Shown here in pieces: positions 4,564 through 37,331 of a stretch of DNA of 64,000 bases. Both the position numbers and the translations under genes were made by a program. The notes below the pieces were generated by a model. It was not told where the DNA came from. It saw nothing but the letters and a program-made list of their open reading frames with translations, and ran no database searches. Numbering within the stretch: position 1 is the stretch's first letter; every line of letters begins with the position of its first letter. Source of the stretch: Minisyncoccota bacterium (GTDB taxonomy: Bacteria > Patescibacteriota > Minisyncoccia > Phycocordibacterales > UBA9973); the NCBI GenBank assembly GCA_031973235.1, contig DALYDM010000001.1:16129-80128 (forward strand), given 5' to 3'.

Positions 4564-4581
4564 ATTTTAAATAATTTTTTT

Positions 4582-4674
4582 AATCCTCCGCATTTGGAAC
4601 ACGTATATTTGCCTGCTGGCAAATTACTATGCTCGGCTCGTCAGCCTTGCGCAATGTTCCAAATGCGGAGGATT
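4582..4674. repeat. 93-bp element with perfect 20-bp terminal inverted repeats (MITE-like or structured RNA)
   Basis: aatcctccgcatttggaaca (4582-4601) is exactly reverse-complemented at 4655-4674. The 53-nt loop holds two small hairpins (tttgcc-tgct-ggcaaa; ggct-cgtc-agcc). The tttggaacac(g/t)tatat motif recurs at 4695-4712. Confidence 0.5.
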
Positions 4675-4823
4675 CTGGTTTTTGGAAAACCACAAATAAA
4701 TTTAATCTTTCGTTTTGGAACACTTATATATTGTACTCAACGTTGAGCATGGTATACATTTGTGCGTTAGTGTGTTATGGTTAACCTGTTGGTCGCTTTT
4801 TTAAATTTTAAATTCAAACTACT

Positions 4824-4988
4824 ATGAACAATGACGATACAATCATCAAGACTGATGAAGCAACTGTAGAAGTACAAGCTACAGAAGAAGCGACAGTAAA
4901 AGCTGAAGAAGTTGCTGCAGAAGAAGCTGAAATGGCTTCTGAGGAAGCTACTACTGAAGGAGCAGAAGGGGAAGTTGAAGCTGAATAA
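4824..4988 (+). CDS. small highly acidic protein (54 aa; below ORF-track cutoff)
   Basis: ATG at 4824 gives MNNDDTIIKTDEATVEVQATEEATVKAEEVAAEEAEMASEEATTEGAEGEVEAE; a strong intrinsic terminator follows at 4999-5032. Confidence 0.4.
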   Translation: MNNDDTIIKTDEATVEVQATEEATVKAEEVAAEEAEMASEEATTEGAEGEVEAE

Positions 4989-4998
4989 GCTACAATTC

Positions 4999-5032
4999 AA
5001 AAGGGCGACGGCCATGGCCGTCGCCCTTTTGA
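4999..5032 (+). terminator. rho-independent terminator
   Basis: aaaagggcgacggcc-atg-gccgtcgccctttt: a perfect GC-rich hairpin followed by a T-run. Confidence 0.8.
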
Positions 5033-5074
5033 ATTTCTCATTTTCCAATATTTTCACTATGCTATAATGCACAC

Positions 5075-6112
5075 ATGTCAGAAATTTCACTCTATCGTAA
5101 ATATAGACCAAAGGATTTTGGAGAGGTTGTTGGACAAGATCATGTCGTATCAGTACTACAAGGTGCACTCAAGAAAGGTGCAGTAGGACATGCGTATCTT
5201 TTTGTAGGAACACGAGGAACAGGTAAGACTTCTGTCGCACGAATTTTCTCACGCGAACTCGGATGTGCACCAGAAGATATCTACGAACTCGATGCCGCTT
5301 CAAACAATGGAGTAGAAGATATTCGTGAACTCACCGAAGGTGTGCACTCGCTACCGTTTTCTTCAAAATACAAAGTGTATATTCTCGATGAAGTACACAT
5401 GCTTTCAAAGTCTGCTGCAAATGCATTTCTCAAAACTCTCGAAGAACCACCGAGGCATGTGATATTTATTCTCGCAACAACAGACCCAGAAAAACTCCCA
5501 GAGACAATCGTCTCACGCTGTCAGGTGTTTACATTCAAAAAGCCATCTGAAAATATTCTGAAAAATGTCGTGATAGATGTGGCAAAGAAAGAAGGCATTG
5601 CACTTGAGCCTGCGGGTGCAGAAATTGTGGCTATCGCTGGAGATGGATCATTTCGTGACACACTCGGTATTTTGCAAAAGGTACTCAATTATTCTACAGA
5701 CAAGAAAATTTCTGCTGATGAAATCGAGCGTGTGACAGGTGCGCCCAAGTCTACTTTGGTCAACGAATACATTCACGGACTTATATTGCGTGATTCTGAA
5801 AAATGTTTGAAAGCAGTACAAAGTGCAAAGAATGCTCAAGTCGACATGAAGCTTTATTTGAAACTCGTAATGCATACATTTCGCCAAGGTCTTCTCGTAC
5901 GATTTGCTCCAACGATGAAAAAAGAAATTGAAGAAGCACTTTCCGAAAGTGACAAAATTTTCCTTGAAGGAATAGCAAAAGAGAAGGAGGGTGTGCTCGC
6001 CTCAAAGACTCTTGTCACCATGCTTCGTGTGTATGAAGAATTCTCCGATGCATTCATCCCCACACTTCCACTCGAAATCCTTGCACTCAAAGTTGCAAAC
6101 AGAGAAGAATAA
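5075..6112 (+). CDS. dnaX: DNA polymerase III subunit gamma/tau (short form)
   Basis: 345 aa with YRPKDFGEVVGQDHV, Walker A GTRGTGKTS and the clamp-loader AAA+ core; truncated relative to E. coli tau. Confidence 0.9.
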   Translation: MSEISLYRKYRPKDFGEVVGQDHVVSVLQGALKKGAVGHAYLFVGTRGTGKTSVARIFSRELGCAPEDIYELDAASNNGVEDIRELTEGVHSLPFSSKYKVYILDEVHMLSKSAANAFLKTLEEPPRHVIFILATTDPEKLPETIVSRCQVFTFKKPSENILKNVVIDVAKKEGIALEPAGAEIVAIAGDGSFRDTLGILQKVLNYSTDKKISADEIERVTGAPKSTLVNEYIHGLILRDSEKCLKAVQSAKNAQVDMKLYLKLVMHTFRQGLLVRFAPTMKKEIEEALSESDKIFLEGIAKEKEGVLASKTLVTMLRVYEEFSDAFIPTLPLEILALKVANREE

Positions 6113-10239: not shown

Positions 10240-10243
10240 TAAA

Positions 10244-10279
10244 AAACTCCTTAAGTGAAATTTCACTGAAGGAGTTTTG
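10244..10279. terminator. bidirectional rho-independent terminator
   Basis: aactccttaagtgaaa / tttcactgaaggagtt stem flanked by A-run and T-run, between convergent genes. Confidence 0.7.
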
Positions 10280-13365: not shown

Positions 13366-13371
13366 ATAATA

Positions 13372-13402
13372 AAAAACGCACGACATGCTCGTGCGTTTTT
13401 TA
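13372..13402 (+). terminator. rho-independent terminator
   Basis: aaaaaacgcacgac-atg-ctcgtgcgtttttt. Confidence 0.8.
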
Positions 13403-13446
13403 TTTTCACATTTGTTTTTTGTAGTAATGAGTTACACTAAATATAT

Positions 13447-14500: not shown

Positions 14501-15517
14501 ATGAAGGCAAAAGTAATTGAGAAAAATTTTTTCTACGCGTTTCTTGTACTCGTTTCAGTTATAGCTGGAATAATACTTTGGCCGTTTTTGTCAGTGATTG
14601 TTATCGGAGCATCTCTTGCGGTGGTATTTCACCCAGTGTATGTCCTTGTTGAAGAGAAAATCACACATGGTATACCGTGGCTTTCTGCACTCCTTACGAC
14701 ACTTCTTTTTCTTGTATTACTTGGAGTACCATTCTTTTTCATAGGTTCTTCAGTGTTTAGACAATCACAAGAAATGTATTCATCGATTACTTCAAATGGT
14801 GGGCCAAGTCCGTATATTGCACACATATCACAATCAATAAGTGAAGTATTACCCAACGGAATTTCTGTAGATGTTGCAAAAAAAATTGATGATATCGCAT
14901 CATTCTTGTCAGGTAGTGCATCAAAGATTTTTACATCTACGATTAGTACGTTGTTTTCCTTTTTGCTTGTTCTACTCTCACTATTCTATTTTCTCAAAGA
15001 TGGAAAACAGTGGAGAGATATGTTGATTGACTTGTCACCACTTCCAGATGAGTACGATGAAAAAATTCTTTACAAGCTTTCACGTGCAGTAAACGGAGTA
15101 ATGAAAGGGTACTTGCTGATCGCGCTTGTCCAAGGATTGTTGATGGGGATTGGGTTGTGGATTTTTGGTGTACCAAACCCAGCATTGTGGGGAGTGTTTG
15201 CCGGTGTTGCATCTATGGTGCCAAGTATCGGAACTGCACTTGTGGCAGTGCCCGCAATCCTCTATCTTCTTGTAACGGGTGACAGTACTGGAGCGGTTGG
15301 ATTTACAGCATGGGCGTTGATACTTGTTGGAACAATCGATAATTTTTTGAACCCAATCGTGGTCGCAAAGAATATTGATCTACATCCACTTATCATTTTG
15401 TTTGCAGTACTTGGTGGAATCTCGTTGATGGGAGCGGTGGGGATTCTCATTGGTCCACTTGTTGTATCACTTTTGTACACACTTCTTACTATTTATCGCG
15501 AACATTTCAAATCATAA
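14501..15517 (+). CDS. AI-2E family transporter (PerM/UPF0118)
   Basis: 338 aa with the family architecture and conserved C-terminal block (VQGLLMGIGLWIFGVPNPALWGV...NFLNPIVVAKNIDLHPL). Confidence 0.75.
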   Translation: MKAKVIEKNFFYAFLVLVSVIAGIILWPFLSVIVIGASLAVVFHPVYVLVEEKITHGIPWLSALLTTLLFLVLLGVPFFFIGSSVFRQSQEMYSSITSNGGPSPYIAHISQSISEVLPNGISVDVAKKIDDIASFLSGSASKIFTSTISTLFSFLLVLLSLFYFLKDGKQWRDMLIDLSPLPDEYDEKILYKLSRAVNGVMKGYLLIALVQGLLMGIGLWIFGVPNPALWGVFAGVASMVPSIGTALVAVPAILYLLVTGDSTGAVGFTAWALILVGTIDNFLNPIVVAKNIDLHPLIILFAVLGGISLMGAVGILIGPLVVSLLYTLLTIYREHFKS

Positions 15518-15518
15518 T

Positions 15519-15547
15519 AAAAACCTCGCATTTCATGCGAGGTTTTT
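15519..15547. terminator. bidirectional rho-independent terminator
   Basis: aaaaacctcgcatttcatgcgaggttttt between convergent genes. Confidence 0.8.
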
Positions 15548-15548
15548 A

Positions 15549-16025
15549 TTATGATTTTAGTGTACCTATTTTGTGAGAAGCGAGTTCTTTTTCTGGGCTT
15601 CGCTCTCCTCCGTGTTGGTCATCAAATGAGCTTGTGCCATCCTTTCCACAAAGTCGCTTTATTGCACCACTTCCGCCAGGGTGTTGATTTATAAATGAAG
15701 TGAGGTCGTATACATTACCACTTACGATTGTCCAACAGCTTGATGAAGAGTTGTGTGTTGCGACTTGTGCACTGGTGTATTCATTTGGGTTTGTTTTTGG
15801 TGGAGTTGAGGGTGTTGTTGGTTTTGGGGTTGTGGTAGGTGTGGTTTTTACTGGAGTGGTGGTTGTCGGTGAGGTTAATGTCTCTTTTGGTACAAGACTT
15901 GCAAGTGGTGGTTCATTCGCTACTGTCTTTTGTTCAGGTGCTTGTGAAGGTTGTTTGGTGGTTAGTAGGAATCCTGCATAAATAATAATAATGCTTATTG
16001 CTACAATTGGTACAATTTTTTTCAT
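15549..16025 (-). CDS. membrane-anchored cytochrome b5-like heme-binding domain protein with Thr/Pro-rich linker
   Basis: Signal-anchor, then a TTTPVKTTPTTTPKPTTPSTPPK linker, then a b5 core (CWTIVSGNVYDLTSFINQHPGG...FDDQHGGE) carrying both axial His positions. Confidence 0.65.
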   Translation of the reverse strand: MKKIVPIVAISIIIIYAGFLLTTKQPSQAPEQKTVANEPPLASLVPKETLTSPTTTTPVKTTPTTTPKPTTPSTPPKTNPNEYTSAQVATHNSSSSCWTIVSGNVYDLTSFINQHPGGSGAIKRLCGKDGTSSFDDQHGGERSPEKELASHKIGTLKS

Positions 16026-18792: not shown

Positions 18793-19677
18793 ATGAAAAA
18801 ATCACTAGTATTTATTTTAGCTGCATTGCTTTTCAGTGCTGGAACATTTGAAGTGCATGCAGATCAAGTTGGATTTCCAGAAAAATCGATTTGGTATTCA
18901 GACGATACATTTATAGTAGGTAATGTTGTCACTATTTATACACTTGTGGTGAATGGAGAATCTTCAACTCTTACTGGTACTGTGCGATTCTTCGATCGCG
19001 ATACTGTTTTGGGTGAAAAGAAAGTTACTATTGATAAAAATGATGCAAAAGTAGTATCTCTTGATTGGAAAGTGTCAGAAGGTGAACATCAATTTTCTGC
19101 GCAGTTTTCTCAGGTTTCCGCAATTGAAGCAGATGGAAAAAAGGTTAGCATTGTTCCAACTACACCAGCCACACAAAAAGATACAGTCTATGTGAAGAAA
19201 GCAATTGCAAAAGAAAACACATCCAATGCAAACGCACTCTCTGCACAAGCATCTTTGAATAAAGATTCAGTTGTTGGCGAAGTCTCTAAAGCAACGGATT
19301 TTATCAAAGAAAAGACACCGGATTCTGTAGAAGAGAAAATATCTTCGACAACAGCAAGTATTGAAACTTTGAGAGAGACATGGGAGGAGCAGTTTTTGGA
19401 AAAAAAGCAGAACGAACAAGACTCACTCAACGCATTAAATGAATTTTATGATGAGAGACTTAAGGCGAAAGAGGAAGCTGATCCAGACAATTTTGTGAAG
19501 CAATCATATGTAGATTCAAGTGGAGAAAATATTTTAAAAAAACCGATGCACTATGTACTAATATTTTTATATTCACTTATTGGATTTATTGTTGGGAATG
19601 CATTAATTTTCTACGGACTGCTGTTGTTGATTGTATTTTGGCTTGTCAGAGGGATTTGGCAAAAGATCAGAAATTAA
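18793..19677 (+). CDS. secreted protein with C-terminal TM anchor (hypothetical)
   Basis: Signal peptide MKKSLVFILAALLFSAGTFEVHA, a beta-rich N-domain, a charged coiled region and a C-terminal TM helix. Confidence 0.4.
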   Translation: MKKSLVFILAALLFSAGTFEVHADQVGFPEKSIWYSDDTFIVGNVVTIYTLVVNGESSTLTGTVRFFDRDTVLGEKKVTIDKNDAKVVSLDWKVSEGEHQFSAQFSQVSAIEADGKKVSIVPTTPATQKDTVYVKKAIAKENTSNANALSAQASLNKDSVVGEVSKATDFIKEKTPDSVEEKISSTTASIETLRETWEEQFLEKKQNEQDSLNALNEFYDERLKAKEEADPDNFVKQSYVDSSGENILKKPMHYVLIFLYSLIGFIVGNALIFYGLLLLIVFWLVRGIWQKIRN

Positions 19678-29805: not shown

Positions 29806-29831
29806 TCTCGTGCTAGCACGAGAAGCATACA

Positions 29832-29858
29832 AAAACAGCCCACTTTGGGCTGTTTTTG
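29832..29858 (+). terminator. rho-independent terminator after tRNA-Glu
   Basis: aaaaacagccc-actt-tgggctgttttt. Confidence 0.75.
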
Positions 29859-29873
29859 TGATAAAATCTAAAT

Positions 29874-36234: not shown

Positions 36235-36250
36235 ACGTAAAAATGGTATC

Positions 36251-36277
36251 AAAACCCCCGCATTTGCGGGGGTTTTT
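36251..36277. terminator. bidirectional rho-independent terminator
   Basis: aaaacccccgc-attt-gcgggggttttt. Confidence 0.85.
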
Positions 36278-37331
36278 ATTCTTCATCTTGACTTGGTTTG
36301 TCTATCGAAAGTACTGTGAGTTCTGGTGATGCACCTGTGATCCTCATAACATCTTTGTCTATTTTTTTGAGCTCTTTATTTGCAAGGTTGTATTGATTGA
36401 CTGTGGTTCCGAGTGCATTGCCGAGTTTTGTATTGTATTCTTCGTATGCTTTAACATGTTTTCCGAGTTCTTCAACACGCTTCACGATTTCTTTCGCTGA
36501 CTCTTCAATTTGCATTGCTTTTAATCCTTGAAGTACAGTTTGAAGATATGCCAGAAATGAAGTAGGAGAGACGATGATGACTTTGTATTTGCCCGCAGCA
36601 CGCTGGATGAGGTTGTCTGTATCTTCAGTGATTGCACCGACTTTACCAATGAGGAGATCATAATATATCGCTTCGTGTGGAATAAACATAAATGCAAAAT
36701 CCATTGTATTTTCCGATGGTCTAATATACTTTGAAGTTTCGACGATACGATTCTTCAAGTCGTTTACAAAAAGTTTTTCTAAACGATCTTTTTCTGTTGG
36801 ATCAGTTGTTTCTGAGAGTCTGTTGTAGTTTTCCAAAGAAAATTTTGAATCAATTGGAATTATCTTGTCTTTTACGAACACTACCGCATCAACAATTTCG
36901 TTGTTTGAAAATGTGTATTGCATTTGAAATTGTCCAGGAGGAAGAACATTTTTGAGGAGTGTTTCAAGATAATATTCTCCTAGAATTCCACGCTGTTTTG
37001 GATTTTTCAAAATGTCTTGGAGGTTTTTGAGTTGATCAGCAAAAGACACAACTTGCTTGTTGGTCTCATCGAGTCGTACGAGTTTCTCGGTGATATCCCG
37101 AATAATTTTTTGTGATTCGCCAGATTGATAGCGAATAGATTCGTTGACTTGTTTGTGGGATTCACCAAGTTTTTGGTCGACGGTGCGAGTGAGAGTGTCG
37201 AATTGTTGCAAGAGAAGCTGCATTGCGCGGTCGTCTTGCACAACAGGCTTATTTTTACGAGAAATTACGACAATAAGTCCGATGCCAAGTCCAAGTACAA
37301 CGATAGATAGAATTATAAGTGCGATTTGCAT
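36276..37331 (-). CDS. rmuC: DNA recombination protein RmuC
   Basis: 351 aa with an N-terminal TM, a long coiled-coil and the RmuC C-domain (FMFIPHEAIYYDLL...VIIVSPTSFLAYLQTV). Confidence 0.8.
   Translation of the reverse strand: MQIALIILSIVVLGLGIGLIVVISRKNKPVVQDDRAMQLLLQQFDTLTRTVDQKLGESHKQVNESIRYQSGESQKIIRDITEKLVRLDETNKQVVSFADQLKNLQDILKNPKQRGILGEYYLETLLKNVLPPGQFQMQYTFSNNEIVDAVVFVKDKIIPIDSKFSLENYNRLSETTDPTEKDRLEKLFVNDLKNRIVETSKYIRPSENTMDFAFMFIPHEAIYYDLLIGKVGAITEDTDNLIQRAAGKYKVIIVSPTSFLAYLQTVLQGLKAMQIEESAKEIVKRVEELGKHVKAYEEYNTKLGNALGTTVNQYNLANKELKKIDKDVMRITGASPELTVLSIDKPSQDEE

Follow-up and report, generated by a model that had tools for sequence, protein, structure and literature searches.

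This analysis concerns the spacer between dus and dnaX in a 64,000-nt stretch of a Patescibacteria (Paceibacteria-type) genome, positions 16,129 to 80,128 of the forward strand of contig DALYDM010000001.1. The whole stretch is called the window below, and coordinates without a contig label refer to it. The spacer holds a palindrome (4569-4693) and, downstream of it, a small gene for an acidic protein (4824-4988). The initial annotation had presented the two as one finding, but they are two unrelated things. The palindrome has a Y-shaped structure, belongs to a hitherto undescribed family found neither in Rfam nor in the literature searched, and occupies different positions in related genomes. 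We read it, with a probability of roughly 0.45, as a low-copy, mobile or relocating non-coding palindrome resembling ERIC or a miniature inverted-repeat transposable element (MITE), probably transcribed. It is neither a classic MITE nor a fixed housekeeping RNA.

The inverted repeat that had drawn attention to this locus is as first described: the arms at 4582-4601 and 4655-4674 are 20 nt each, 100% complementary and 53 nt apart. Either strand folds into a long stem with two mini-hairpins (-50.2 and -52.7 kcal/mol; z = -9 and -10 on the two strands), and none of 200 shuffles was equally stable. The parts of the element are as follows.

4569..4581, + strand: AT-rich box (AAATAAT) and T-run directly 5' of the palindrome, moving with the element between sites
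4582..4601, + strand: P1, 5' arm of the perfect 20-bp inverted repeat; among 11 copies, both partners vary in each of the 12 modelled P1 pairs
4603..4627, + strand: P2, A/U-rich hairpin GUAUAUUUGCC UGCU GGCAAAUUAC and a single bulged U; both partners vary in 9 of 10 pairs
4631..4650, + strand: P3, core hairpin GCUC GGCU CGUC AGCC UUGC, a 20-mer shared unchanged by the window, L030, L038 and five unrelated metagenome contigs
4655..4674, + strand: P1, 3' arm, complement of 4582-4601
4675..4693, + strand: P4, small hairpin UGGUUUU UGG AAAACCA, an inverted repeat right after P1 that covaries between sites
4701..4733, + strand: second copy, truncated to the left end of the element: flank, 5' arm and the start of P2

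The palindrome is non-coding, as the open reading frames (ORFs) across its copies are not conserved. A peptide coded in the core was rejected because the copies share no consistent start codon or frame. The AT-rich box may be a -10 box with a leader, although a consensus scan found no sigma-70 promoter there. P4 contains a run of five U that begins 4 nt past P1, and its sequence differs between relatives while the pairing is kept (CUGGUUU/AAACCAG in L030, CUGUAUU/AAUACAG in L056, UGUUUU/AAAACA in L048; L numbers are our handles for the contigs compared). The partial direct copy downstream proved longer than first noted: 27 of its 33 positions are identical to 4578-4611, a score that none of 500 shuffles attained, and TTTGGAACACNTATAT recurs 121 nt downstream, start to start. 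This truncated copy includes the upstream AT-rich box and adjoins the intact copy in the window. In L030 and L038 the similarity to a tandem second copy was not significant.

The strongest single result is covariation, from which we conclude that the structure of the palindrome is under selection. Orthologous loci of relatives were retrieved via DnaX and DprA, and the 20-nt core GCTCGGCTCGTCAGCCTTGC was scanned against 241 million metagenome records. Eight contigs matched the core; three were high-GC chance matches and five were true copies with the same architecture: the stem that closes them is unrelated in sequence and 17-28 bp long (more in L043), P2 is rich in A/U, P3 is the core hairpin, and the junctions are short. 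Overall, the family comprises 11 full copies and one truncated copy, from close relatives and five unrelated metagenome contigs. The copies are 93-144 nt long with inverted arms of 17-28 bp or more, and all are built alike, with P1 as the long stem, P2 as an A/U-rich hairpin and P3 as a conserved one. In L030 and L038, which carry the element at the same site as the window, changes in P1 are compensated. P2 has been rewritten three times and is still a hairpin (UUUGCC/GGCAAA, AAAUUC/GAAUUU, AUUUUUC/GAAAAAU).

In a hand-trimmed alignment 22 of 31 pairs changed on both sides. A covariance model built from it was used to realign the 11 copies; in the resulting alignment 93.7% of the cells are paired and both partners vary in 25 of the 28 pairs. 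None of 500 shuffles matched this pairing and covariation, and controls in which the alignment was slid paired at only 32-53%, which argues that the structure is selected. The model had no match in 250 kb of control DNA. The Y-shaped structured element proposed at the outset is thus strongly supported, with P1 and P2 covarying over the 11 copies; it is not a single copy lacking covariation, the outcome that had been named as refuting it. A search with the 4227 models of Rfam 15 gave no relevant match on either strand of the window, even at E <= 10, nor in six further loci (E <= 10 or <= 1).

The behavior of P3 is less uniform than its sequence at first suggests. The 20-nt hairpin is identical across organisms of 28-44% GC. 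In near relatives it covaries: GGCU CGUC AGCC becomes GCGC CGCC GCGC in L031 and L056, where the stem still pairs, and the loop in L048 is CGCC. In L031 and L056, P3 is heavily rewritten while P1 and P2 are nearly unchanged. P3 is therefore identical in distant lineages yet changed in the nearest relatives.

The second line of evidence is position. Among the compared genomes of one genus-level clade, whose DnaX or DprA is 86-93% identical, the element sits at no fewer than four intergenic sites or is absent; further contexts come from the more distant copies.

Window, L030 and L038: spacer between dus and the acidic ORF
L048: serS-dprA spacer, oriented to serS
L055: 42 nt from the dprA start, a second position in the serS-dprA spacer
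L031, L032 and L056: serS-dprA spacer, oriented to dprA
L044: directly past the rplJ stop, ahead of rplL
L047: between a stop codon and a terminator
L042 and L043 (different organisms): upstream of rmuC in L042, downstream of rmuC in L043
L045: between thrS and rpmF

No element was present in L050 (19.6 kb) or L057 (6 kb), and L048 has one copy in 20.8 kb. The dus-dnaX spacing is 18 bp in L031 and L056; in the more distant L034 and L036 it is 59 and 17 bp. Flanking direct repeats of 6 bp occur at two copies, AAAGAT in L044 (P = 0.015) and TCGCTC in L047 (P = 0.003). Within the window clade, blastn and alignment place the start of homology between sites about 7-25 nt 5' of P1, and the homology runs about 20-25 nt 3' of the palindrome, through the covarying P4. 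The stretch that travels upstream is a T-run after an AT-rich, -10-like box (TATAAT in L056, TATAAA in L038, AATAAT in the window).

Three observations concern the contigs themselves. The Logan contigs L031 and L032 end 10 nt past the modelled core (2 nt beyond the outer arm), and L055 ends inside the element, after P2. We rejected these ends as a sign of a repeat, since L056 and long assemblies read through the element; the breaks are likely due to strain heterogeneity. The serS-dprA spacer of L048 (9329-10000) is 672 bp long versus about 130 bp in the window and L050, and it contains two small elements and about 295 nt with neither ORF conservation nor an Rfam match. In L045, a T-box leader of thrS (25.8 bits against a cut-off of 93) was dismissed.

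Taken as a claim about a MITE, the initial annotation was half right. The element is short, non-coding and bounded by terminal inverted repeats, filled and empty sites differ between close relatives, and 6-bp repeats flank two copies. On the other hand, one copy was found in 64 kb, the arms are variable and the center is conserved, and in this clade the moving unit is larger than the palindrome. The arms are alike only within the window clade and are unrelated in L042, L043, L044, L045 and L047. The follow-up suggested for such an element, a search for further copies with target-site duplications, gave a mixed answer: there were the repeats at L044 and L047, no second full copy in the 64 kb, and chance matches to single arms elsewhere. 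We rejected a high-copy MITE, since a scan of 185,579 species-representative genomes with an 18-mer of the arm returned 28 chance single-arm matches alone. A phage origin was also rejected; the core was absent from viral contigs and phage records, and the ORF from viral contigs.

If the palindrome is mobile, its conserved P2-P3 tip would be recognized by a trans-acting protein, such as a transposase, a recombinase or a host factor. The long stem would need only to pair, as DNA or on both strands, and its sequence would be free to drift. Movement would proceed by cutting or copying and insertion into AT-rich intergenic DNA, at times with a 6-bp duplication. Once inserted, the element would be transcribed with its neighbors or from its own AT-rich box into a stable RNA hairpin, with a possible effect on mRNA processing.

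The pattern of pairing fits this picture. Every change in the aligned pairs leads from one Watson-Crick pair to another or to a mismatch, and one-sided (G.U) changes account for 0 of 303 aligned pair cells. Folding of the full elements gave 386 Watson-Crick pairs versus 7 G.U pairs, and mismatches of A.C type were similarly frequent. Such Watson-Crick-only covariation is what a palindrome acting as DNA or on two strands would give, and it is unusual for an RNA made from one strand. Assigning the strand by G.U versus A.C was abandoned as contradictory, the + strand carrying A.C-type changes in the window clade and G.U-type changes elsewhere. Judged as an Rfam family would be, the element has a covariation-supported structure, no match to a described family and no strand-specific G.U signature.

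Several results weigh against a mobile palindrome. The so-called terminal repeats vary between lineages, unlike the terminal inverted repeats bound by transposases, and it is the center that is conserved. The window holds one full copy, with filters off and the full model applied at every position. The element is crossed without a break in long assemblies and in the L056 contig, which speaks against many near-identical copies. No transposase or recombinase was linked to the palindrome, and six of the eight independent copies (window, L048, L056, L042, L043, L045) lack a flanking duplication. The segment common to different sites in the window clade exceeds the palindrome and resembles a small gene on the move rather than a transposon defined by terminal repeats. 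A conserved tip with covarying stems is also a classic signature of functional RNA, and the ordinary terminators of this genome are perfect palindromes too, so the missing G.U pairs cannot alone exclude a function at the RNA level. Finally, an exact 20-mer served to find the five metagenome copies, and P3 is rewritten in near relatives; the invariance of the core is thus partly an artefact of ascertainment, and the taxonomy of these five contigs was inferred from gene content and base composition.

Some of these points would be accounted for by a small, trans-acting structured RNA gene of about 110-140 nt on the + strand, read from the -10-like box and carried on a mobile or shuffled cassette. 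P1 would then protect the RNA or serve as an RNase III processing stalk, the P3/P2 tip would be the binding site for a protein or a second RNA, and the gene would be an accessory one, shuffled among plastic intergenic spacers. We regard this, the main rival reading, as possible, though on balance unlikely. A conserved 20-nt hairpin with covarying stems is the standard mark of a functional RNA, the -10-like box travels along at a similar distance, and past P1 come a U-run and a further hairpin, P4, which covaries. Copies in the window clade, read in the + orientation, always point the same way as the next gene (acidic ORF, serS or dprA), and each contig has about one copy. Yet such a gene is hard to square with the absence of G.U among the 303 aligned cells and with A.C mismatches equalling G.U on either strand. 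It would have no sigma-70 consensus promoter and no canonical terminator: the intrinsic-terminator scan flagged 4994-5035 alone and not the palindrome, whose U5 lies 4 nt off the stem. Among relatives at about 90% protein identity the site shifts or the element is missing, and in the nearest of them, L031 and L056, it is P3 that has been much rewritten with P1 and P2 almost constant. The L044 copy lies inside the rplJ-rplL operon. Five true exact-core matches in 241 million records are also too few for an RNA with an invariant core that is universal in Patescibacteria.

A bolder version would make the element an undescribed functional three-way-junction RNA of Patescibacteria on a self-contained mobile cassette, that is, a mobile RNA gene. 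We consider it doubtful. Were it true, the cassette would consist of its own AT-rich promoter box, a leader, P1-P3 and P4, and the RNA could serve, say, as guide or recognition RNA in a recombination, defence or addiction system not recognized so far, or be a new class of ribozyme.

The palindrome begins 18 nt past the dus stop, its stem is very stable (-50 kcal/mol) with U5 4 nt on, and in four of the eight independent contexts a co-oriented gene lies just upstream of the element. These observations would suit a cis-acting RNA structure of the local operon, whether a complex terminator, an attenuator, an RNase III or stability element at the dus 3' end, or a 5' leader of the acidic ORF. However, the copies in divergent promoter spacers (serS|dprA, thrS|rpmF, upstream of rmuC) have nothing to terminate, and termination does not need a conserved three-way tip. 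The U-run does not adjoin the stem, the terminator scan is silent on the palindrome, and the acidic ORF is found without the element and the element without the ORF. A cis-acting role thus seems to us improbable.

A divergent copy of a known housekeeping RNA, chiefly the signal recognition particle (SRP; 4.5S/scRNA) RNA, which in Bacillus is located just upstream of dnaX, has only this position and the long-hairpin shape in its favor and is hardly credible: the models for SRP (RF00169, RF01854), 6S, tmRNA and RNase P gave no hit to either strand even at E <= 10, nor to six further copies, neither strand, read by eye, has a GNRA-capped helix 8 with AGCA/AGG loops, and the element is not syntenic with dnaX in relatives. 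An element of a replication origin or terminus was also rejected, as GC skew is uniform across the window and L048 (and uniformly positive at the locus).

Beside the palindrome, the spacer contains a genuine, clade-restricted orphan gene with its own terminator.

4824..4988, + strand: gene for an acidic orphan protein of 54 amino acids; orthologues in L030, L038, L039, L048, L050 and L057
4994..5043, + strand: intrinsic terminator serving the acidic ORF, formed by a perfect 21-bp palindrome and a tail rich in T; unchanged in all four aligned relatives

The ORF proposed in the initial annotation stands, but its acidity had been overstated: 19 of the 54 residues (35%) are D or E, not 27. K and R together number two, the pI is 4.05 and the net charge is about -17. 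It had been noted that the ORF track annotated no such gene; an identical 54-residue product is a public gene call on DALYEF010000003.1 (GCA_031972675.1), a contig identical to the window over 6.1 kb around the palindrome and the ORF. Lack of conservation in relatives had been named as grounds for discarding the ORF; instead, seven orthologues preserve the frame across roughly the first 42 codons under purifying selection, with dN/dS of 0.04-0.39 over codons 1-42 and variable columns distributed 6/2/12 by codon position (12 of 20 at the third position). The C-terminal tail varies in length, giving proteins of 49-54 residues, and in L039, a single low-coverage contig, the stop codon is lost. 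The ORF occurs without the element in L048, L050 and L057 and the element without the ORF in L031 and L056, so the gene is independent of the palindrome. The strong terminator noted earlier was found as described, 4994-5035 being a perfect 21-bp palindrome followed by a T-rich tail.

The protein is probably helical or disordered: a single-sequence AlphaFold model predicts one long helix at modest confidence (predicted local distance difference test score of 74). Pfam has no family for it, and searches of 5.8 billion clustered sequences, 1.84 billion representative proteins and viral contigs gave no homologue beyond the clade. Within the ORF, 4871-4989 shows a 12-nt (four-codon) periodicity, with six copies of AGAAGAAGCNNC. 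A sub-threshold CsrC match (40 bits, with the cut-off at 61) that spans the ORF and its terminator was set aside; we judged it best explained by the purine-rich 12-nt repeats together with the terminator.

The local gene order is dprA on the minus strand, then serS, a 296-aa gene, dus, the palindrome with the acidic ORF, dnaX and tRNA-Gln. The flanking genes had been named correctly, being a Dus protein (PF01207) and a DnaX-type AAA+/DNA_pol3_delta2 protein, and the closest relatives by DnaX and DprA carry names such as Candidatus Paceibacterota, Parcubacteria and Minisyncoccia. In the window an extended -10 box (TGcTATAAT, 5060-5077) ends 6 nt ahead of the dnaX ATG, with no Shine-Dalgarno sequence; relatives carry TGATATACT at the corresponding place. 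A Shine-Dalgarno sequence is likewise lacking at serS, dus and the acidic ORF, and the genome looks largely leaderless or Shine-Dalgarno-independent. Between the terminator of the acidic ORF and dnaX, L030 (3880-4000) and L039 (350-470) have about 100 bp extra, made up of four to five (C)TTATACTAAC-like repeats that apparently reiterate the dnaX -10 region. Elsewhere in the window, terminators between genes at 15509-15557, 13368-13404, 29829-29859, 36248-36279 and 10243-10278 have arms of 14-23 bp including A- and T-tracts and are perfect palindromes (near-perfect at 36248-36279 and 10243-10278). The long palindromic terminators of this genome look bidirectional.

The relatives contain other small insertions. 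At several loci of the clade, a second inverted-repeat element (GTCATCCTG...CAGGATC) is found in exact copies of 48 nt, which indicates that small mobile repeats circulate there. Its hairpin fold has z = -3.7, and the window has no copy.

L050: 6173-6220 and 15923-15970, two copies of the 48-nt element in one 20-kb locus
L048: 9876-9923, one copy
L039: 6-53, one copy
L057: 301-348, one copy

In L050, L039 and L057 this element lies in the spacer between dus and the ORF, the site of the Y-shaped element in the window, and one of the L050 copies adjoins a 105-aa GIY-YIG gene. A 94-aa GIY-YIG gene lies between dprA and topA in L050 (10972-11256) and L057 (5077-5361) and is missing from L048 (10862-11327); it is a further presence/absence polymorphism in the same neighborhood. 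At 19479-19600, L050 also has a LOOT RNA (RF03000; 81 bits against a cut-off of 46), less than 1 kb from the gene for a 565-aa large serine recombinase, inside which Rfam also calls a tRNA. This region is probably an integrated element.

Genomes of Patescibacteria, also known as the candidate phyla radiation (CPR), are about 1 Mb in size and highly streamlined, and to our knowledge almost nothing has been reported on their non-coding or mobile DNA. The family described here combines textbook covariation and a core common to distant lineages, yet it wanders among the spacers of near-identical genomes. If it is a mobile palindrome, it would represent a new small type with a conserved tip instead of conserved ends, implying recognition based on structure. 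A mobile small-RNA gene, the alternative outcome, would also be useful to have. With the acidic microprotein, the phylum gains another well-supported small orphan gene.

How does the family compare with known systems? By eye, and by comparison with sequences rather than with dedicated tools, we rejected likenesses to the hammerhead, group II domain V, boxB, the K-turn, attC and parS, because the resembling bases vary among copies. The T-shaped hairpins of parvovirus inverted terminal repeats offer an analogy of shape only. They share the long stem, the two small internal palindromes and the perfect Watson-Crick arms, but they are viral genome ends with a role in replication, whereas the window element is chromosomal and internal, with no Rep gene and no viral match.

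REPIN/RAYT elements and attC sites come closer in how they evolve, as there too the sequence of the hairpin drifts but compensating, essentially Watson-Crick changes preserve its pairing, and recognition by a recombinase is plausible for the window element as well. Unlike them, on inspection of its sequence, it lacks both a GTAG-type REP head and, at the stem base, the R''/R' boxes (RYYYAAC/GTTRRRY), and no RAYT or integrase gene is found among the ORFs around it. The stem base is AATCCTCC/GGAGGATT and the stem is perfect, which does not agree with attC (judged by reading the sequence, not with a dedicated attC model). We also know of no 6-bp duplication left by REPIN or attC insertion.

With the Correia repeat enclosed element (CREE) of Neisseria and RUP, both classical bacterial MITEs, the family shares a non-coding length of about 100-150 bp, terminal inverted repeats, intergenic location and insertion polymorphism, and the 6-bp repeats at two copies may correspond to their occasional short target duplication; hairpins of RNase III type form when these elements are transcribed. 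In MITEs the terminal repeats are the conserved part, bound by the transposase, and copies are numerous. By contrast, in the window family the arms vary, the center is conserved and a duplication is seen in two of the eight copies.

By analogy, the palindrome is comparable to intergenic palindromes of the ERIC, Correia or REPIN type. ERIC (also IRU) and YPAL are enterobacterial palindromes, imperfect or perfect, of about 100-130 nt in transcribed intergenic DNA that form RNA hairpins when co-transcribed, and we know of no dedicated transposase for ERIC. The window element shares with them the size of the palindrome, the intergenic position, conservation across genera and presence or absence at orthologous spacers. 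On the other hand, ERIC has tens to hundreds of copies conserved over their full length, while the window family has about one copy per 20-64 kb sampled, with a stem rewritten in each lineage and the branched tip alone conserved.

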